From positions 388,994 to 452,993 of the forward strand of contig CAVUKB010000005.1 in the NCBI GenBank assembly GCA_963741955.1: DNA of 64,000 nt, in the 5' to 3' direction. The notes beneath the pieces are model-generated. The model made no database searches. It was not told where the DNA came from and was given only the letters and a program-made list of their open reading frames with translations. The DNA comes from an uncultured Acidobacteriota bacterium. Lineage in GTDB: Bacteria > Acidobacteriota > Thermoanaerobaculia > Gp7-AA8. Below, in pieces: positions 53,493 to 64,000 of the stretch; the stretch's first letter is position 1; every line of letters begins with the position of its first letter. Made by a program: the position numbers and the translations under genes.

Positions 53493-54905
53493 CTACGAAG
53501 TGGCGTACTGGACAGCCATTTCGGGGGTGACAGCGGATTTCGAGCGCTTCAGGTGTCGTGCGACGGGGGTCTGGAAGTCGGTGAAATTGGGGGGTTCGAA
53601 GTTGCGGATGTGGCGAATGCAGGCGGATCGCATCGCGCGAAGGTACTGGCCGGTGGGTATTCGCCACTGATCGGGGATATCGTTGTCTCTCCACTTGGGC
53701 ATCAGTTCGGGGGGCGCAGTGGAGCCGAGGCCGAAGCAATCGGCGGCAGCGAGGAGCATCATCGAGTAGACGGCTACGGCGAAAGCGGGCAGCGAGTCGA
53801 CCGATCGCCGGTTGCGCACCTGCGCCTGGCCGACACCGAAGATCTGCTTTTCGTCGCGGTGATTGACCTCGATATCCCAGCGGCGGAAGTAGGCTTGGAC
53901 GAGCTCGACGAGCGAGAGTTTCAGGTCGGTACAGATCAGGAACGCCGGTTTGCGATACAGCAGGCGTGATTTCTTGCGGAGCCGATAGCCCAGTGGCCGG
54001 ATCACGACGAGCCGCAGAGGCAGTTCATAACCCGAAGTTTTCCAAAGCACGGGACCGATGGTCTTGATCGAACAGGCGTGTTCACGACCCGAGGCCCAGA
54101 CTTGGACCTGTTGCCAGTCGATGGATTGGTCCACGCGGAGTTGATCGGGTGTTGGGGCCTGATCGCCATACCAGCGCTTGCGTCCGCGAAGCGGTTGAGA
54201 GTTTGGAGGAAAGAACAGCTTCGCGTCGCCTCGGATGCGACCGATCAGGATCGTTCGTTCCGGCAAGTTCCGCAGAACCGTACGGTTGGTGTAACCGCCG
54301 TCAACCACCGGCATCAGCACGCGCTCGCTCGCTCCGAGCTGGTCAAAGTCCTTGCGAGTTTGGATCAGCAGACGCGTTGCACCGATGGAAAGATTCTGCT
54401 CTTTCTGCTGGCGACGATACTCGGCACGTTCCTGCTCGGTTGCTCCGGCCCCCGGGCGAACCGCCGGAGGCTGGTGATTGAACCGGATCGGGAAGCTGCG
54501 CGCCGGACCGGCAGACTGGCCAGTTAAAGGAACACTGATCGCAGCCTGAATGAACCGTTGGGCGCGGATCAAGTTCGTGTGGAAAGGCGGCGACATCGGA
54601 TCGCGCTGATAACTCACGCCTGGGATCTTCATGCCCGTCTTGCGCAACTTCGTGTCATCCAGCGGCAGCACCAGCGGTGCGTCGAGCGGCAAGTACGCGA
54701 GCAGGTGTCGTTCGATGACTCTGAACATCTCGCTCACATCGAACCGACCCTCCGAGAAAACGCGATAGTCTGCCGACCAGTCCTGCTGCGGATCGCGGCC
54801 TGCTTCAATCATTCCGCTTACCGTGTGTCGCCCGGTGCAGTTGAGCAGGCCGATGGCCAACCCACGAACCCGCTGAAGCACCCGAGCATCACAGGATCCA
54901 TTCAA
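53493..54905 (-). CDS. DDE transposase, IS4-like (YREK signature)
   Basis: 470 aa with VDGGY and YFRRWDIEVNHRDEKQ (Y-x2-R-x3-E-x6-K). Confidence 0.8.
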   Translation of the reverse strand: MNGSCDARVLQRVRGLAIGLLNCTGRHTVSGMIEAGRDPQQDWSADYRVFSEGRFDVSEMFRVIERHLLAYLPLDAPLVLPLDDTKLRKTGMKIPGVSYQRDPMSPPFHTNLIRAQRFIQAAISVPLTGQSAGPARSFPIRFNHQPPAVRPGAGATEQERAEYRRQQKEQNLSIGATRLLIQTRKDFDQLGASERVLMPVVDGGYTNRTVLRNLPERTILIGRIRGDAKLFFPPNSQPLRGRKRWYGDQAPTPDQLRVDQSIDWQQVQVWASGREHACSIKTIGPVLWKTSGYELPLRLVVIRPLGYRLRKKSRLLYRKPAFLICTDLKLSLVELVQAYFRRWDIEVNHRDEKQIFGVGQAQVRNRRSVDSLPAFAVAVYSMMLLAAADCFGLGSTAPPELMPKWRDNDIPDQWRIPTGQYLRAMRSACIRHIRNFEPPNFTDFQTPVARHLKRSKSAVTPEMAVQYATS

Positions 54906-58636: not shown

Positions 58637-59623
58637 ATGGTCCCATCCTTGTTCGGACTTCTGGATTCATTTCCAGCGGTAGAGGTGGTGCGTTTTCTGG
58701 TCGCCCGCGCGATGTCGGGGACGCTCTCCATTGCCTCCGGCGGCGGATTCGAGATCGTGTTCCGTCGCGGCCGCATCGTCGCTGCGTCCTGCCGCGGAGA
58801 GAACGCGGCCTCGGCTGCCGCGGAGATCGCGATTCGCGCGATGCTTCAGTGGACCGGAACGTTCTCGTTCGCAGATTCGATCGGCGATCCCGCCGGCTCC
58901 GTCGATCTCGATCCCGCCCAGTTGATCGCCACGGTGGAGGAACGCATCGATCAGAGCGTCCACTACCCGGCCGGCTCCGTCTTCCTTCTCGCCCGCGACA
59001 TCGAAACGGACGAACGATTCACGGCCGGAGAAGTCCGGGTTCTGCGGGAGCTCGACGGGACGCGTCCGATCGAGGAGGTGATCCGGGAGAGCGGTCTCGC
59101 GAGCGACGAGGCGGCCGCAATCGTTGCATCGATGGTCCGCAGAGGATGGCTGATCTCCCGGCAGGGCTCGAAGATGAAGCTTCCCGCCGCACGACCTTCG
59201 GATTCCCCCGCTCCTGATCGGGCGGGCGTTCCACGTCCCCCCACCGAGGAGATGCCGGCACCTGCGGGATCGGCCGGGCCCGCCGAACCGAGCTCACGGG
59301 CGCCATTTCTCGCCTGTTTCACGCTCGACAATACCGCGAGCACGTCGTTCCCTCTCTTCGACGAGAGCTGCACGATCGGACGGAGCTCCAGGAATACGAT
59401 CCAGCTCGATGACCCGAGCGTCTCCTCTTCGCATGCCCGCATCACGGCCACCGCCGATGGGCATCTCCTCGAGGACCTCGGGTCGAGCAACGGGACGTTC
59501 GTCAACGGCCGGAAGATCAGGACGGCGTCGCTGCGCGACAAGGACCGCATCCGGATGGGCGCGGTCTACATGGTCTACATGATTCCCGAAGTCCATCGAC
59601 CCGAGAGCGAGCCTCGCCCATGA
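58637..59623 (+). CDS. DUF4388 domain plus C-terminal FHA domain protein
   Basis: N-terminus LLDSFPAVEVVRFLVARAMSGTLSIASGGGFEIVFRRGRIVAAS (DUF4388-like). C-terminus CTIGRSSRNTIQLDDPSVSSSHARI...GSSNGTFVNGRKI (FHA). Confidence 0.65.
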   Translation: MVPSLFGLLDSFPAVEVVRFLVARAMSGTLSIASGGGFEIVFRRGRIVAASCRGENAASAAAEIAIRAMLQWTGTFSFADSIGDPAGSVDLDPAQLIATVEERIDQSVHYPAGSVFLLARDIETDERFTAGEVRVLRELDGTRPIEEVIRESGLASDEAAAIVASMVRRGWLISRQGSKMKLPAARPSDSPAPDRAGVPRPPTEEMPAPAGSAGPAEPSSRAPFLACFTLDNTASTSFPLFDESCTIGRSSRNTIQLDDPSVSSSHARITATADGHLLEDLGSSNGTFVNGRKIRTASLRDKDRIRMGAVYMVYMIPEVHRPESEPRP

Positions 59624-62022
59624 CGGAGCTCGATCTCATCATCGTCGGCTCCGGACCCGCAGGATTGAGCGCTGCGTCTCACGCCGCGAGCAACGCTCTT
59701 CGCTACGTGGTCCTCGAGCGAGCTCCACACATCGCCGACACCATCCAGTGCTATCAGGCGCGCAAGTACGTGATGGCCGAGCCGATGGTCATCCCCGGGC
59801 GCGGCGATCTCCCGTTCGAGGCGGGCTCGCGCGAGTCGATCCTCGACGCATGGAGTGTCCACTGTCGCGATCGCACGCTCCACATCGAGTTCGGAAAGGA
59901 AGTTCAGTCGATCGAGCGCGGCTCGTCCGGATTCACGGTCCGCACGAAGGACGGCGGAAGCTGGGCGGCCCCGAACGTGATCCTCGGCGTCGGCACGCAG
60001 GGATCTCTGCGGAAGCCGAACGTCCCGGGCGAAGATCTCCCCCACGTTTTCTATCGACTGGCCGACCCGTCCGATTACAGCGATCAGGATCTCGTCGTGG
60101 TCGGTGCAGGCGATTCCGCGCTCGAGATCGCACTCGCGCTCGCCGACGAGAACCGCGTCAGCCTGGTCGTCCGCTCGTCCGAGATCGTCCGGGCGAAGGA
60201 GAGCCTCACCCGCGAGGCACTGAGTCGCGAAGCGAGCGGACGGATGACGATCTACTTCAGCGCGACTCTGCACAACATCGAGCCGGGATTCACCGATCTC
60301 GACGTTCGCGGAGAGATCGTCCGTGTTCCCGCACAGGCTCTCTTTCTCAAGCTCGGAGCGGTCGCACCACGGAAGTTTTTCGAGTCGTGTGGCATCGAGT
60401 ACAGCGGGAAAGATCGCGACGCCATCCCTCTCCTCTCGGAGCACTACGAGACGAGCGTTCCGGGCCTCTATCTGATCGGCGCGGCAAGCGGACGCGATCT
60501 GATCAAACTCGGGATGAATCAGGGATGGGAAGTCGTCGAGCACATCCTCGGGCACGAGGTCGAACCCGCCGACGAAGCGGTGCTGCGGGAGAGAGTTCCC
60601 TTTCTGGAAGGAACCGTCCACCAGAGGATCGGACAGCTCAGAGAAAAGATTCCGCTATTCGCGGCCGCCGAGGTCGAGCAGATCCGCGAGATGCTGCTCG
60701 CGACGGAGTTGCGGGAGTTCACGAACGGGCAGACCGTCATCCGGCAGAACGATTACACGAACGAGTTCCTGGTGATCGCGAGCGGCCGGGTCGAGGTCCT
60801 GGTCCGGAGCGAGGAAGGCGTGGAGAGCCGGGTCGCCGAGCTGACCGCGGGGAACTTCTTCGGCGAGATGAGTCTCATCTCGGGACGTCGCCGGAGTGCG
60901 ACGGTGAATGTGGTCGGCCCGGCGAAGATCTTCGCCATTCCGCGAAAAGCCATGCTGAAGCTGATCCGCACTTCGCCCGCAGTGCGCGATCTGGTCGATC
61001 GCGCATTCCTGATCCGGGCGATTCAGGGCTACCTCTTCCCGAATGTCTCCACCGCACGGCTGGGAGAACTGGTCGGACGTGCCGAGCTCCTCTCGCTCCC
61101 GAAGGGTCACGCGGTGTTCTACGAGGGCGCCGAAGGAGACGCGTTCTACCTCATCCGGAATGGAATGGTGAAGATCGCCCGCAAGTCGGGTGATCGGGAG
61201 CTCGTTCTCTCCTATCTCGTCGCAGGCAACTTCTTCGGAGAAACGGCACTCCTTTCGAACCAGCCGCGGACTGCGACCGTCACCACGATCTTTCCCTCCG
61301 ACCTGATTCGCCTCAGCCGCGACGATTTCCAGTCGTTCCTCGCGGCCAATCCTCAGTTCCGCGCCGACCCGATGAAGAAGCTCGAGGAGCGACGGATCGG
61401 CGCTCTCGTCGCCGATGCGACACCGGGAGCGGGGAACGTTCTGAGCGATCTGATTCGCGAAGAAGTGGTGATGGGGACGGACACCCTGATCATCGACGAG
61501 CATCTCTGCATCCGCTGCAGCAACTGCGTCCGCGCGTGCGAGGGCGTTCACGATGACGGTCAATCGCGGCTCTCGCTCACCGGCATTCGTCTGTACAACG
61601 TCCTCGCACCGAACTCCTGCTGGCAGTGCGAGAACCCTCTCTGCATGCTCGACTGCCCGCCGGATGCGATCGCGCGCGACCCGCGAGGAGAGGTCTACAT
61701 CCGGAGCAACTGCATCGGATGCGGAAACTGCGAGTCGAATTGTCCCTACGGCAACATCTTCATGATTCACCCCAAACCGAAGTGGGATCCATTCGGCTGG
61801 GTCAAGTCACTCTTCGCCCGCGCTGCGGGAAGATCGGCCGACGGCAACGGCGGCGAGCACGGCATCGAGCGGACTCTCGCCGTGAAGTGCGATCTCTGTC
61901 GCGACCTCGGCAGCGGACCGGCATGCGTGCGGAGCTGTCCCACCGGTGCCGCGCTGCGTCTCACGCCGCAGGAGTATCGCAGCACGCTGGAGGAGATCGT
62001 GATCACCAGAGGAGATCGCTGA
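59620..62022 (+). CDS. Multidomain redox/sensor protein: thioredoxin-reductase-like FAD/NAD(P) oxidoreductase, then two cNMP-binding (CAP effector) domains, then a 4x[4Fe-4S] ferredoxin module
   Basis: IIVGSGPAGLSAA and VVVGAGDSALE (dinucleotide folds). Two GNFFGE(M/T)(S/A)L cNMP-pocket motifs. Four Cys clusters: CIRCSNCVRAC, CWQCENPLCMLDCP, CIGCGNCESNCP, CDLCRD...CVRSCP. ATG overlaps the upstream stop. Confidence 0.75.
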   Translation: MTELDLIIVGSGPAGLSAASHAASNALRYVVLERAPHIADTIQCYQARKYVMAEPMVIPGRGDLPFEAGSRESILDAWSVHCRDRTLHIEFGKEVQSIERGSSGFTVRTKDGGSWAAPNVILGVGTQGSLRKPNVPGEDLPHVFYRLADPSDYSDQDLVVVGAGDSALEIALALADENRVSLVVRSSEIVRAKESLTREALSREASGRMTIYFSATLHNIEPGFTDLDVRGEIVRVPAQALFLKLGAVAPRKFFESCGIEYSGKDRDAIPLLSEHYETSVPGLYLIGAASGRDLIKLGMNQGWEVVEHILGHEVEPADEAVLRERVPFLEGTVHQRIGQLREKIPLFAAAEVEQIREMLLATELREFTNGQTVIRQNDYTNEFLVIASGRVEVLVRSEEGVESRVAELTAGNFFGEMSLISGRRRSATVNVVGPAKIFAIPRKAMLKLIRTSPAVRDLVDRAFLIRAIQGYLFPNVSTARLGELVGRAELLSLPKGHAVFYEGAEGDAFYLIRNGMVKIARKSGDRELVLSYLVAGNFFGETALLSNQPRTATVTTIFPSDLIRLSRDDFQSFLAANPQFRADPMKKLEERRIGALVADATPGAGNVLSDLIREEVVMGTDTLIIDEHLCIRCSNCVRACEGVHDDGQSRLSLTGIRLYNVLAPNSCWQCENPLCMLDCPPDAIARDPRGEVYIRSNCIGCGNCESNCPYGNIFMIHPKPKWDPFGWVKSLFARAAGRSADGNGGEHGIERTLAVKCDLCRDLGSGPACVRSCPTGAALRLTPQEYRSTLEEIVITRGDR

Positions 62023-62023
62023 G

Positions 62024-62863
62024 GTGCCGGTCCGGAGACATGCAGGCCGCTGGCAGCTGATCTCGGCGCTTCTTCTCGCCGCACTGCTCGGCTCATACGT
62101 CTGGTACGAGCAGCGCGAGCCGTTCACCCATGGCGGATCGACGATGGGTCTGATCTACGGAATCGTGGCGCTCGCGCTGATGGGCCTCCTTCTCTGGTTC
62201 GGCATCCGGAAGCGCTCCTACCGAAGCCGCTTCGGCACGCTCGAGGAGTGGCTGCAGTCGCACATCTATCTCGGCCTCTTCACGTTTGCGGTGGTGATCG
62301 CGCACACCGGATTCCAGTTCCGCGATCGGATGGCGATCGCGCTCCTGATCGTGGTCACTCTGGTGATCGCCAGCGGAATCCTCGGCGCGATTCTCTACAA
62401 GACGGTGCCGCGTCTGCTCACCGAGGTCGACTCGAATCTTCCTGCGGACGCGATGTCGGAAGAGATGAACCAGCTGACGCGATCGATGTCGCGGGCCGCA
62501 TCGGGCAAGTCGGCCCCGTTCCAGCGCATTTACAAACGGCTGGTGCAGGAAGCAATCCCTCCTCCTCTCGCGGGATGGCGTCTCCTGCTCCGTTCTTCGA
62601 ACCGACGGAATCCCACCACTCGTCCGGACGACTGGTCGTCATTCCTGGGGATGGTTCCGGAAGACGAACAGGCGGAGCTGCGACAGCTTCTGGTGCTCTC
62701 ACGGCAGCAGAAGGAACTGCAACTGCGCCTGGTTGCACAGCAGAAGTACCGTAACCTGCTCGATTTCTGGCTCTACATGCACCTCCCTCTTTCCATCGCC
62801 ATGATCCTCCTGATCATCGCGCATCTGTGGGGCGTGTTCTATTACGGCAAAATCCAGTTCTGA
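62024..62863 (+). CDS. Hypothetical polytopic membrane protein (about 5 TM)
   Basis: GTG start 1 nt after the upstream stop. Hydrophobic segments. No recognisable family. Confidence 0.5.
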   Translation: MPVRRHAGRWQLISALLLAALLGSYVWYEQREPFTHGGSTMGLIYGIVALALMGLLLWFGIRKRSYRSRFGTLEEWLQSHIYLGLFTFAVVIAHTGFQFRDRMAIALLIVVTLVIASGILGAILYKTVPRLLTEVDSNLPADAMSEEMNQLTRSMSRAASGKSAPFQRIYKRLVQEAIPPPLAGWRLLLRSSNRRNPTTRPDDWSSFLGMVPEDEQAELRQLLVLSRQQKELQLRLVAQQKYRNLLDFWLYMHLPLSIAMILLIIAHLWGVFYYGKIQF

Positions 62864-62872
62864 GGAATCGGC

Positions 62873-64000
62873 GTGTCCTTTCTGCTTCAGAAGATCGACC
62901 GGCCCAGAGTCACTCTGGTCGAGGTGAAGTCGCCCCGATTGACGATCGGGCGAGGCACGGGTGCGGACCTTCGATCCGAAAACGCCGCGGTGGCGCTCGA
63001 GCACGCGGTCGTCGAACTGAGGAAGGATGCCGGATACGAGATCTTCGACCGGGGGAGCATCACCGGGACGTACGTGAACGGGCGTCCCATCGAGAGCCGG
63101 CTCCTCGCGGCAGGCGATCGGATCGAGATCGGCGACCTGGTGATGGACGTCCAGGTTGCGGCGGCGGATCGTCCCCTCTTCCTCCGCGTCGAGAAAACGC
63201 GGGAAGAGAACGAAGCTCCGCTTCAGACCGGCGCGGCGGACGAGCGTCCCGTCTTCCTCACCGGAGCGCGGGTCGGAGCGCCTCGGATTGACTTCTCCCG
63301 CGCCTACGCACTGCGCCAGGGCTTTCTGTCGAAAGGTGGAATGGTCTTCTCCCTGATGGCCCTCACGGCGATTCTCGTTGCGGCGGCGATCATCGGTGCG
63401 AAGGGCCTCGCCTACCAGCCCGGGCCGATCTCCGTCGCGCACGCGACGGCGACCCGACCCGATGGCGAGCGCGTCATCGGCGAACACGAGTGCAACGCGT
63501 GTCACGTTCCCTTCGGAGGAGCGAGCAACCACAAGTGCGGCGAGTGCCACGAGCAGTCGTTCCACCAGGCGAGAGAAGCGAAGGTCGGCCCGTGCATCGA
63601 CTGTCACGCAGAGCATCGCGACGTCCCGAATCTCGCGATGGTCCAGGCACAGCAGTGCGTTCGATGTCATCGGAATCTCGAGGGGAGCTCCATCACCGCG
63701 AAACGAACCATCACCGCGTTCGAGACCGACCATCCCGAATTCACGATCCGGCTGGCGAGCGGAAAGAACGAGGCGGTCAACACCGCGACGGCTCGTACCG
63801 CGGATGCGATTCCACTGAAGTTCAACCACCAGTGCCACCTTCAGGGAAAGTGCAATCTCACTCCGCCCACTGCGAGCGACCCGAGACGGGAGAAGGTCGA
63901 GCTTCACTGTGTCTCCTGCCACACTTTCGATCCGCAGACCGGAGCGGCCCAGCCGGTCCGGTACGAGACCGCATGCTCGAAATGTCATCCGCTCACGTTC
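62873..64000 (+). CDS. FHA domain, single TM helix, then a multihaem c-type cytochrome (at least 6 CxxCH); 3' end lies beyond the window
   Basis: GTG start. Open through the window end, so it is absent from the ORF track. FHA: LTIGRGTGADLRSENAAVALEHAVVEL...GSITGTYVNGRPI. TM: MVFSLMALTAILVAAAIIGA. Haem motifs: CNACH, CGECH, CIDCH, CVRCH, CVSCH, CSKCH. Confidence 0.7.
   Translation, partial: MSFLLQKIDRPRVTLVEVKSPRLTIGRGTGADLRSENAAVALEHAVVELRKDAGYEIFDRGSITGTYVNGRPIESRLLAAGDRIEIGDLVMDVQVAAADRPLFLRVEKTREENEAPLQTGAADERPVFLTGARVGAPRIDFSRAYALRQGFLSKGGMVFSLMALTAILVAAAIIGAKGLAYQPGPISVAHATATRPDGERVIGEHECNACHVPFGGASNHKCGECHEQSFHQAREAKVGPCIDCHAEHRDVPNLAMVQAQQCVRCHRNLEGSSITAKRTITAFETDHPEFTIRLASGKNEAVNTATARTADAIPLKFNHQCHLQGKCNLTPPTASDPRREKVELHCVSCHTFDPQTGAAQPVRYETACSKCHPLTF

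Follow-up and report, generated by a model that had tools for sequence, protein, structure and literature searches.

A candidate regulated electron conduit leading from NAD(P)H across the cell envelope, encoded by an eight-gene cluster with an FHA-multihaem cytochrome in Acidobacteriota and other phyla

Four adjoining genes, g1 to g4, lie at the end of a 64,000-nt stretch of DNA from an uncultured Acidobacteriota bacterium (hereafter, the window). We propose, with moderate confidence, that they encode the cytoplasmic and inner-membrane module of a regulated eight-gene trans-envelope electron conduit that starts from NAD(P)H. The proposal draws on domain identities, invariant cofactor ligands, topology, synteny and cyclase linkage, all of which were read from the sequences. 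A first-pass annotation of the same DNA had described a transmembrane electron-transfer chain gated by cyclic nucleotides and by Ser/Thr phosphorylation. The electron chain and the cyclic-nucleotide control in that reading are supported by the sequences, and the phosphothreonine (pThr) gating is supported in part. The features of the cluster are listed in Table 1.

Table 1. Genes and domains of the cluster (positions in the window unless a contig is named; aa, residue numbers of the protein)
Feature	Position	Strand	Description	Basis
g1	58637..59623	+	cytoplasmic DUF4388/PatA_N + canonical FHA adaptor protein, 328 aa	ORF, Pfam
g1 domains	aa 7-106; aa 245-308		DUF4388/PatA_N; FHA	Pfam
g2	59620..62022	+	soluble 800-aa flavo-iron-sulfur protein with two CNB domains	Pfam, NCBIfam, PDB sequence matches
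g2 domains	aa 5-292; aa 365-451; about aa 483-575; aa 623-782		TrxR-fold FAD/NAD(P)H; CNB-A; CNB-B; four-[4Fe-4S] ferredoxin module	
g3	62024..62863	+	5-TM inner-membrane protein, predicted dihaem b-type cytochrome (ferric-reductase / cyt b561-like)	invariant His, hydropathy, AF2
g4	62873..64000	+	5' 376 codons in window; FHA-TM-multihaem cytochrome c	ORF, Pfam, TM prediction
g4 in window	aa 24-87; aa 156-174; after TM1		divergent N-terminal FHA; TM1; 6 CxxCH	
g4 past window			4 more CxxCH, TM2, Pro/Ser-rich linker, canonical C-terminal FHA	
g4 full length	L001 7499-9934		811 aa, FHA-TM-10 CxxCH-TM-FHA	
d1	downstream gene		HbpS-like protein, periplasmic double HbpS-like	
d2	downstream gene		probable outer-membrane beta-barrel	signal peptide, C-terminal aromatic residue
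d3	downstream gene		decahaem LVIVD protein, 10 CxxCH, secreted	
d4	downstream gene		4-5-haem cytochrome, c554-like, secreted	weak match to pentahaem c552 5ze8, E 0.004

The four ORFs have the coordinates and junctions first reported for them, and the domains named in them (FHA, DUF4388, cNMP, Pyr_redox and 4Fe-4S) could all be assigned. The g1 and g2 genes overlap by 4 nt (ATGA), g2 and g3 are 1 nt apart and g3 and g4 9 nt apart, while g4 begins with a GTG codon and its ORF leaves the window at its end. However, the unit is larger than the four-gene operon first described, although its genes and their order were given correctly: g1 to g4 make up the first four genes of a collinear cluster of eight, and four genes as the whole operon are ruled out by synteny. 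Extension of the contig downstream, which the first-pass annotation had recommended, recovered the full g4, with 10 CxxCH motifs, and further genes. Three downstream genes are visible on the extended contig (L001), and the fourth is found in the homologous loci L003, L078, L079 and L080. A scan of the cluster for promoters and terminators returned sites no more numerous than in shuffled sequence. Upstream of g1, the window carries sulfatase, amidohydrolase and transposase genes.

The cluster is widespread. A genome scan confirmed 381 matching stretches, and the 75 loci fetched place it in Thermoanaerobaculia, Holophagales, Gamma- and Alphaproteobacteria and Bdellovibrionales MAGs. In about 70 loci of Acidobacteriota, Gamma-/Alphaproteobacteria and Bdellovibrionales, g2, g3 and g4 are followed in collinear order by d1, d2 and d3, with variable flanks. 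The gene neighbourhood, whose conservation had been proposed as a check, is thus kept in several phyla, and chance adjacency is ruled out by the collinear order and the variable flanks. As for the downstream products, d2 ends in an aromatic residue in all 51 complete ORFs tallied, as outer-membrane barrels typically do, and has no family match; d3 has no match in a PDB sequence search, and none of d2, d3 and d4 matches an MtrA/B/C equivalog. In L003, the cluster is abutted by Ccm genes for cytochrome c maturation. In some lineages, other signalling genes are found near the cluster, namely CHASE2-cyclase, FHA-GGDEF, VWA-FHA and hybrid histidine kinase genes.

The g2 protein, described at first as a flavoprotein with two cNMP domains and a 4x[4Fe-4S] module, was recognized as such by Pfam, with cNMP_binding twice (E 2e-43), Pyr_redox_3 (6.8e-35), Pyr_redox_2 (5.2e-22) and the Fer4 families, and by PDB sequence matches to YpdA/Bdr (7a7b, 1.7e-18), the tandem CNB domains of PKG and PKA-R, and HycB 4-cluster ferredoxins. 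No TM segment is predicted. The first-pass label TrxR-like holds for the fold only. Among 62 sequences, the glycine motifs for FAD and for NAD(P)H are retained, and the flavin domain has no conserved CxxC and no conserved Cys at all; the scores against TIGR01292 (69, cut-off 343) and TIGR04018 (128, cut-off 340) are far under the equivalog cut-offs, so a true thioredoxin reductase is ruled out. Since the redox disulfide CxxC is missing, the domain is better described as a YpdA/FNR-like member of the TrxR fold. Its GxGPxG motif has Ala at a position where YpdA has Cys, and g2 does not qualify as a YpdA bacillithiol-disulfide reductase either. In the ferredoxin module, all 16 Cys of the four motifs (CxxCxxCxxxC, CxxCxxxxCxxxCP, CxxCxxCxxxCP and CxxCx8CxxxCP) are invariant in the 62 sequences. 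The best matches are HycB3 (6e-15) and formate hydrogenlyase subunit 2 (8e-15), but the score lies below every equivalog cut-off, and the module is therefore assigned to the four-cluster ferredoxin type (HycB/HydN/NrfC/DmsB) and to no named member of it. The tandem cNMP_binding match covers two stretches with 146.7 bits (PF00027 cut-off 27.5). Both CNB domains retain the phosphate-binding cassette G-E...R-x-A, in which conservation across the same 62 sequences reaches at least 95% for G415/E416/R425 and G540/E541/R550/A552 and at least 80% for A427.

Hydropathy and an AF2 model (pLDDT 80.6) agree on five TM helices for g3, as had been noted, and hydropathy together with K/R counts indicates an N-in/C-out topology; a conserved cytoplasmic loop of 130 aa separates TM4 from TM5. 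Two H-x13-H pairs, H80/H94 in TM3 and H253/H267 in TM5, do not vary among 69 homologs from several phyla, and a dihaem b-type membrane protein is predicted on this basis. The Pfam matches fall below the gathering score (Ferric_reduct PF01794, 20.4 bits vs 28; prokaryotic cytochrome b561 PF01292, 25.9 vs 30.1). Within the g3 family, Ferric_reduct is matched at E<=0.01 in 21/31 (best 3.8e-6) and Ni_hydr_CYTB in 18/31 (best 9.7e-6), again sub-threshold. A natural fusion, P0379, joins a g3-like domain to a C-terminal 5-CxxCH cytochrome, which agrees with the C-out topology and suggests that the b-haem domain is functionally tied to multihaem c.

The g4 protein had been read as one FHA domain, one TM helix and at least six CxxCH, which is right for the part in the window, whereas the full-length protein carries 10 CxxCH, followed by another TM helix and another FHA domain. 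The N-terminal FHA match (E 4.8e-12) scores 46.6 bits against a cut-off of 20.7; the precomputed Pfam list for full-length g4 contains FHA twice, and with the family profile, FHA domains of known structure are matched at the N- and the C-terminal end. According to TM prediction, the haem domain sits between the two TM helices and cytoplasmic FHA domains flank both ends, so that the haems would be periplasmic, as first suggested. In a 15-sequence alignment, the haem domain always has 10 CxxCH and 10 further invariant His, that is, one distal ligand per haem. In this long form, the haem domain is membrane-anchored at both ends, and its reach across the periplasm would be limited.

The invariance of the cofactor motifs across phyla, the conserved gene order and the role of g3 as the predicted membrane step argue for a transmembrane chain from NAD(P)H, flavin and Fe-S to periplasmic haems. 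Contact among g2, g3 and g4 is suggested by synteny, and we infer from the above the physical complex, the direction of flow, the gating mechanism and the substrate. NAD(P)H would be bound at the disulfide-free flavin domain of g2, as in YpdA and TrxR-type ferredoxin-NADP reductases, and electrons would then run along the protein's own four [4Fe-4S] clusters. The g2 protein would dock on the cytoplasmic face of g3, where two stacked bis-His b haems, probably ligated by H80 and H253 near the cytoplasm and by H94 and H267 near the periplasm, would carry electrons across the membrane. Anchored beside g3, g4 would receive them into ten bis-His c haems in the periplasm, and d1 to d4 may conduct them onward to the outer membrane or the cell surface.

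The membrane step resembles that of the NADPH oxidase / ferric reductase (FRD) superfamily (NOX, FRE, STEAP, MsrQ), in which electrons pass from NAD(P)H through flavin and two bis-His b haems on TM3/TM5 to a far-side acceptor; the N-in TM1-5 topology and the H-x13-H spacing are common to g3. However, FRD proteins have 6 TM helices rather than 5, and g3 is sub-threshold in Pfam and contains the TM4-TM5 insert. In addition, the FNR-like domain is fused in the FRD superfamily, whereas here a separate TrxR-fold flavoprotein with four Fe-S clusters is found, and the acceptor is a multihaem c protein.

Many dihaem b proteins bind quinone, and g3 could too. In that case, g3, with or without g4, would connect the multihaem chain with the quinone pool, working as a quinol:cytochrome c or cytochrome c:quinone oxidoreductase in the manner of CymA/NapC, CbcL or CybB, and g2 would feed or sense this step as an NAD(P)H:quinone reductase or a redox regulator, with no direct passage from g2 through g3 to g4. 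We regard this as rather unlikely: no quinone-site motif is identifiable, g4 matches no NapC/NirT/NrfH family of NCBIfam at E<=0.01 and its family profile reaches NrfH in the PDB only marginally (E 0.0096), and both the two H-x13-H helices and the tight universal tie to a soluble NAD(P)H-flavin-4x[4Fe-4S] protein fit a straight-through wire better.

FHA, DUF4388/PatA_N and CNB are typical signalling domains, and signalling genes adjoin the cluster in some lineages. The proteins might therefore form a redox-sensing complex, in which the periplasmic haems of g4 report the redox state of the periplasm or of the cell's exterior, the signal crosses the membrane, and the FHA domains, g1 and g2 are signalling outputs rather than an electron source. 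This appears improbable, because the conserved core has no output domain (kinase, GGDEF or DNA-binding) and keeps what an electron path would need. The ten haems of g4, each with an invariant distal His, resemble a wire and not a sensing haem, g2 keeps the whole NAD(P)H-FAD-4x[4Fe-4S] path with its 16 invariant Cys, g3 keeps its four haem-ligand His, and genes for a putative porin and for two other multihaem proteins are constantly linked.

For the conduit that we favour, electrons likely flow outward, leaving NAD(P)H for an acceptor in the periplasm or outside the cell; this direction is downhill and favoured by the membrane potential, and it avoids the quinone pool. Inward uptake, in which a donor in the periplasm or outside the cell would feed the multihaem chain and electrons would pass by way of g4, g3 and g2 to NAD(P)+ or a ferredoxin-like acceptor, that is, the reverse flow for autotrophy suspected for iron oxidisers, is very unlikely: the cofactor chain is reversible in principle, and a related module is expressed in all conditions tested in Fe(II)-oxidising Gallionellaceae, but by general bioenergetics electrons would have to move against the membrane potential onto a couple of about -320 mV, doubly uphill for Fe(II)-type donors, the cluster has no energy-coupling subunit, and Thermoanaerobaculia and Woeseiaceae are not known to be obligate lithoautotrophs.

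Unregulated outward flow would be wasteful, which would account for the heavy regulation that the domains suggest. The two CNB domains, placed between the flavin and Fe-S modules of g2, may gate or tune the flow. Control by cyclic nucleotides, already proposed at first pass, is backed by the retained phosphate-binding residues and by the class III cyclase genes that join the cluster in several lineages. Such genes occur within or adjoining the cluster in 9 loci, in three different arrangements, and a CHASE2-like fragment lies at the cluster edge in 2 additional loci; the cyclase-linked lineages are Woeseiaceae, Pseudomonadales and some Acidobacteria. No cyclase gene is present in the neighbourhood of the window itself.

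Phospho-control appears to be backed less well than cyclic-nucleotide control, because the universal FHA domain, the N-terminal one of g4, lacks the pThr-binding Ser/Asn, and no kinase is linked. The pThr residues were scored with a GarA sequence as reference and cross-checked on the two canonical domains of the same locus. The g4 N-terminal FHA domain keeps GR, but in most Acidobacteria Ala replaces the Ser and Thr replaces the Asn, and the domain is more degenerate still in Proteobacteria. By contrast, the C-terminal FHA domain of g4 is canonical (GR/SRH/STNGT), and so is that of g1 (GR / SxxH / SSNGT), for which FHA (E 5.5e-21; 75.2 bits vs the PF00498 cut-off of 20.7) and DUF4388 (E 1.4e-9) both exceed the gathering cut-off, as expected from its first description as a DUF4388-FHA protein. 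These two canonical domains are limited to the Thermoanaerobaculia variant. The g1 gene is found only in clusters whose g4 carries the C-terminal FHA domain, with 24 concordant-positive, 24 concordant-negative and 6 discordant cases. The linked Ser/Thr kinase that the first-pass annotation suggested looking for did not appear: in 1.36 Mb (80 fetched loci and the window), the Hanks kinase motif occurs at 2 sites, neither of them conserved and none in the window. The pThr gating originally proposed may thus apply to g1 and the C-terminal FHA domain of g4, which in Thermoanaerobaculia would add a pThr-dependent assembly or regulatory layer, but not to the universal FHA domain, which may be a phospho-independent docking domain. 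Candidate phosphorylation sites are a conserved Thr in the g3 loop and the Pro/Ser/Thr-rich linker of g4.

A more specific version of the conduit is offered here as a tentative suggestion. It would be a prokaryotic, quinone-independent 'NOX-like' valve, in which cAMP/cGMP bound between the flavin and Fe-S modules might switch g2 on and the FHA domains might recruit it to g3/g4, independently of phosphorylation at the g4 N-terminus and in a pThr-dependent way through g1 and the C-terminal FHA domain. This would allow on-demand electron export across both membranes to an external acceptor, that is, second-messenger-gated extracellular electron transfer.

The first-pass annotation knew of no characterised system of such composition. 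Indeed none has been characterised, but equivalent modules have already been described. The putative porin-cytochrome operon ptdABCDEFG of marine ODZ Alphaproteobacteria has no assigned function (bioRxiv 10.1101/2023.11.21.568154). Its PtdE (cNMP-binding + 4Fe-4S), PtdF (ferric-reductase-like membrane protein) and PtdG (decahaem) correspond to g2, g3 and g4 in composition and order, and the operon also has a porin and further multihaem proteins. However, pentahaem PtdA, porin PtdB, a separate FAD/NAD(P) oxidoreductase PtdC and tetrahaem PtdD lie upstream, whereas in the present cluster the HbpS-like, barrel, decahaem-LVIVD and 4-5-haem genes lie downstream, the flavin domain is fused to g2 and there is no PtdC; the published description mentions no FHA domains, no g1 and no second TM/FHA of g4. 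The FHA-nonahaem cytochrome (NHC) cluster of Ferrigenium straubiae is expressed in all conditions tested, again with no assigned function (bioRxiv 10.64898/2026.01.22.701106). Its multihaem cytochrome is anchored in the inner membrane, has an FHA domain in the cytosol and is encoded beside a 5-TM protein and a cytosolic [4Fe-4S] protein. The module differs in its nine haems, single TM helix and nirK/SHP neighbourhood; the haem-b role of the 5-TM protein was unrecognised, and the description is without cNMP, flavin, g1 or C-terminal FHA features. In the Gallionellaceae pangenome, cytochrome cluster 403 is a 'Forkhead-associated protein, 10 haems' (PMC10734462). It should be noted that the Ptd and Ferrigenium modules were likened to g2-g3-g4 by their published descriptions, not by sequence, and that a homolog search with the short-form g4 profile returned almost only Woeseiaceae and no bridge to the Gallionellaceae or Ptd relatives. 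Since the core triad matches PtdEFG and the Ferrigenium module by composition, the locus belongs to a described but uncharacterised kind. The LVIVD mention in a Tenderiales preprint concerns an unrelated protein.

The Hmc/Tmc complexes of sulfate reducers, together with CymA, ImcH and CbcL, likewise combine periplasmic multihaem c, membrane haem b and a cytoplasmic Fe-S protein for electron transfer through the inner membrane, and inner-membrane cytochromes of extracellular electron transfer are also the entry points of porin-cytochrome conduits. However, they are built from other protein families (NarI-like b subunits, HdrD-like CCG proteins, NapC/NirT folds) and are in most cases coupled to quinones or to Dsr/Hdr chemistry, and NAD(P)H-flavin, CNB and FHA domains are absent from all of them.

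If the proposed conduit is real, many uncultured soil, sediment and marine bacteria would send NAD(P)H electrons across the envelope with the quinone pool bypassed, under cyclic-nucleotide and FHA control. The carriers would be Thermoanaerobaculia, Woeseiaceae, Pseudomonadales and their relatives and, by composition, also Gallionellaceae and ODZ Alphaproteobacteria. Extracellular electron transfer would gain a new point of entry, bacteria would have a counterpart of the NADPH oxidases and ferric reductases of eukaryotes, and a multihaem wire gated by a second messenger or in a phospho-dependent way would be described for the first time. The model also offers a function for PtdEFG, the Ferrigenium FHA-nonahaem cluster and Gallionellaceae cytochrome cluster 403. 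The module is not rare, because the g3-type family alone comprises about 1,900 clusters at 50% identity (E<=1e-10).

The four co-directional ORFs of the first-pass annotation (g1 to g4) were recovered with identical coordinates and junctions: g1 and g2 overlap in an ATGA, g3 starts 1 nt past the g2 stop, and the GTG start of g4 lies 9 nt past the g3 stop. Its domain calls in g1, g2 and g4 are all above the curated Pfam thresholds, and the base composition of the four-gene region is the same as that of the surrounding DNA. In NCBI, the locus proteins (Thermoanaerobaculia MAG) carry no annotation beyond 'FHA domain-containing', 'cyclic nucleotide-binding domain-containing' or 'hypothetical'. The earlier observation is confirmed and also enlarged, in that the four genes it had taken as the unit are only part of it. 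One genome was scanned for each species, which confirmed 381 matching stretches; the sequences of 75 distinct loci were retrieved. In a set of 5.8 billion proteins, at least 256 belong to the g4 family. In tblastn searches with all proteins, g2-g3-g4-d1-d2-d3 (d1 to d4 being four further genes downstream of g4) are collinear in almost all loci that extend far enough to reveal the order, and d4 follows d3 in all four loci examined for it. This neighbourhood, whose conservation had been proposed as a check, recurs in Acidobacteriota (Thermoanaerobaculia, Holophagales), Proteobacteria (Woeseiaceae, Pseudomonadales, Chiayiivirga/Lysobacteraceae, Rhodospirillaceae, Stellaceae) and Bdellovibrionales MAGs, while the flanks vary by locus (Ccm maturation genes, hybrid histidine kinase, PSCyt2/DUF1501, Na/H exchanger; here sulfatase, amidohydrolase and DDE transposase). 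Therefore, the unit is an eight-gene cluster.

Table. Coordinates of the cluster genes and associated features (window positions unless a fetched locus, L, is named)
Feature	Location	Strand	Description
g1	58637-59623	+	ORF; DUF4388/PatA_N, FHA
g2	59620-62022	+	ORF; Pyr_redox_3, Pyr_redox_2, two cNMP_binding, 4Fe-4S families
g3	62024-62863	+	ORF; five TM helices
g4	from GTG 62873, past window end	+	N to C: FHA; TM1 (aa 156-174); ten CxxCH; TM2 (aa 586-604); Pro/Ser-rich linker; second FHA
g4 linker	L001 9300-9700 (aa ~600-735), beyond window		low complexity
d1	downstream of g4	as g4	secreted; two HbpS-like domains
d2	downstream of g4	as g4	640-680 aa; secreted; aromatic C-terminal residue
d3	downstream of g4	as g4	~1,200 aa; secreted; ten CxxCH, LVIVD propeller repeats
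d3 copies	L001 13869-17489; L003 16335-20096; L078 15983-19573; L080 15364-19065		
d4	after d3	as g4	430-490-aa cytochrome; 4-5 haem sites; c554-like
Woeseiaceae cyclase/Slam-like/FecR block	L080 1350-6735; also L056, L064, L067	as g2	directly upstream of g2 homologue
FHA-GGDEF gene	L070 798-3131	+	Chiayiivirga
Hanks-kinase motif	L070 ~1682	-	motif alone
VWA-FHA gene	L073 3011-4381	-	Pseudomonadales chromosome
Ccm genes	L003 358-4967		CcmF/NrfE-like, CcmH/NrfF-like, TPR CycH/CcmI-like
DDE_5 transposase ORF	53493-54905	-	Pfam E 1.4e-16

The membrane-spanning redox step of the cluster is predicted to be g3, as a dihaem protein. Its five TM helices, already called in the first-pass annotation, are supported by hydropathy and an AF2 model (pLDDT 80.6), and its topology is N-in/C-out, with a conserved 130-aa cytoplasmic loop joining TM4 and TM5. 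H80 and H94 (TM3) and H253 and H267 (TM5) are the same in all of 69 homologues, which come from several phyla, and the two His of each pair are 14 positions apart. Bis-His dihaem sites are spaced in this way in cytochrome b and in ferric-reductase/NOX domains, the latter also on TM3 and TM5. Profile support for the predicted dihaem domain is weak but consistent, since Ferric_reduct is matched by 21 of the 31 g3-family members and Ni_hydr_CYTB by 18, all below the Pfam threshold. The family comprises 1,940 clusters at 50% identity (E<=1e-10). In one member, P0379 (758 aa), a g3-like dihaem-b membrane domain is naturally fused, on its C-terminal side, to a c554/MtrC-like cytochrome with five CxxCH. 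This fusion independently puts the C-terminus of g3 on the periplasmic side and links the g3 domain to multihaem c partners. Two others, P0349 and P0286, have N-terminal extensions of 80-150 aa.

The full length of g4, 811 aa, was read from a longer public contig carrying the same locus (L001, GCA_049580305.1). Because both ends, each with an FHA, are cytoplasmic, the haem domain can only lie in the periplasm, the side to which its CxxCH motifs had been assigned, which answers the topology check set out earlier; a positively charged stretch directly follows TM2. None of the ten CxxCH varies in an alignment of 15 sequences, and neither do ten more His, enough to give every haem one possible distal ligand; this is the pattern of a bis-His electron wire. 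The linker after TM2 is rich in Pro, Ser, Ala and Thr. Within it, T692 and T709, just N-terminal of the second FHA, are nearly invariant and could be phosphorylated and then bound by an FHA, intra- or intermolecularly, by analogy with GarA/OdhI.

Across 62 sequences of g2, the 16 Cys that make up the four ferredoxin motifs never vary and the glycine motifs for FAD and NAD(P)H are conserved; the flavin domain has no conserved Cys. Consequently, the TrxR-like call made earlier holds for the fold: the domain is an NAD(P)H flavoprotein like YpdA and the TrxR-type FNRs, while a role as disulfide reductase is ruled out. Among its PDB sequence hits is YpdA/Bdr 7a7b (1.7e-18), and the NCBIfam models nearest to the g2 modules (YpdA; CRP/PKA-type CNB; HydN/AegA-type ferredoxins) are all far below equivalog cut-offs. 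In its Fe-S module, g2 is similar to the four-cluster ferredoxins of the HycB/HydN type, proteins that dock on membrane subunits.

Among the downstream products, d2 ends in an aromatic residue, the usual signature of an outer-membrane barrel, in the 51 complete ORFs tallied, and d4 has weak similarity to the Thermochromatium pentahaem c552. Proteobacterial homologues share about 41% identity with this locus in g2, 28% in g3, 27% in g4, 40% in d2 and 52-55% in d3, which is by far the most conserved gene of the cluster between Acidobacteria and Proteobacteria. No relative of d3 was found in the PDB sequence search, and the protein has no family assignment; it may act as the catalytic or terminal part of the cluster.

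The most economical reading of the cluster is a wire, in which electrons would pass from NAD(P)H to FAD and the four [4Fe-4S] of g2, then to the two b haems of g3, the ten c haems of g4 and the periplasmic and outer-membrane components d1 to d4; the sequences themselves show the domains, ligands, topology, synteny and linkage to cyclases, and complex formation, flow direction, gating and acceptor are what we infer. From bioenergetics, outward flow would be downhill and helped by the membrane potential. An unregulated short circuit from NAD(P)H to the outside would be costly, which fits the high density of regulatory domains. We retain a quinone-coupled role of g3 and g4 and a redox-sensor complex as alternatives, and also inward electron uptake, for which flow onto NAD(P)+ would be doubly uphill.

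The transmembrane chain under cNMP and phospho-control, as first proposed, is right in outline, and its cNMP part is the stronger. The tandem CNB domains of g2 resemble PKG and PKA-R (PDB sequence search, E 1e-24 to 1e-18), and their G-E...R-x-A cyclic-phosphate contacts are conserved across the 62 sequences. In Woeseiaceae, the operon-like block of g2 also holds CHASE2-Guanylate_cyc, Slam-like TPR/SlipAM and FecR-domain genes, immediately upstream of g2. A cyclase gene comes straight after d4 in Pseudomonadales and lies upstream in two Acidobacteria with short-form g4 (without TM2 and C-terminal FHA). In total, nine loci are linked to a cyclase, and two more carry a CHASE2-like fragment at the locus edge. 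No cyclase was seen beside the long-form Thermoanaerobaculia clusters or in the window. The d1 protein of a Woeseiaceae locus (L080) carries a lipobox (LTAC) and could be a Slam-exported surface lipoprotein.

For phospho-control, g1 and the C-terminal FHA of g4 have the full canonical set (GR, SxxH, S-x-NG-T). However, the only FHA found in every lineage, at the g4 N-terminus, keeps GR and His with Ser replaced by Ala and Asn by Thr, and is more degenerate in Proteobacteria. It matches the T3SS YscD-type cytoplasmic domain just below the Pfam threshold, and FHA-like domains of this kind work without binding phosphopeptides; it is therefore read as a docking domain. Both g1 and the g4 TM2 with C-terminal FHA are present in 24 loci, neither in 24, and 6 are discordant, some apparently by frameshift; the association (Fisher p 4e-9) ignores kinship and is largely one clade against the rest. 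No linked Hanks kinase was found in 80 fetched loci plus the window (1.36 Mb), where the catalytic motif occurs twice, neither conserved. One such motif overlaps, on the opposite strand, an FHA-GGDEF ORF adjoining the Chiayiivirga cluster; a VWA-FHA gene adjoins that of a Pseudomonadales chromosome.

Modules of this kind have been described in three literature traces, without function. In the ptdABCDEFG operon of ODZ Alphaproteobacteria, whose function 'remains completely unknown', PtdE is a CNB/4Fe-4S protein, PtdF a ferric-reductase-like membrane protein and PtdG a decahaem (bioRxiv 10.1101/2023.11.21.568154). An FHA-nonahaem cytochrome gene of Ferrigenium straubiae adjoins genes for a 5-TM and a [4Fe-4S] protein, the combination of FHA with multihaem cytochromes being previously unreported according to its authors (bioRxiv 10.64898/2026.01.22.701106), and a 'Forkhead-associated protein, 10 haems' cytochrome cluster occurs in 27 Gallionellaceae genomes (PMC10734462). 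The likeness is one of composition and order, drawn from the published descriptions. The present locus differs in having a fused flavin domain in g2, dihaem ligands that can be recognised in g3, a hairpin-shaped g4 whose second FHA is canonical, a DUF4388-FHA partner (g1) and the accessory set d1 to d4. The system is a new variant and is widespread. The nearest characterised functional analogues are NOX/ferric reductases and Hmc/Tmc-type transmembrane complexes, although by defined features the cluster belongs to neither family.

At the window locus, an ORF for a transposase of the DDE_5 superfamily is found 3.7 kb upstream of g1, and the amidohydrolase and sulfatase genes between them are outside the conserved neighbourhood of other genomes. 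In another Thermoanaerobaculia MAG (L003), Ccm genes directly precede the g1 homologue, which suggests a dedicated haem lyase for the cytochromes of the cluster.
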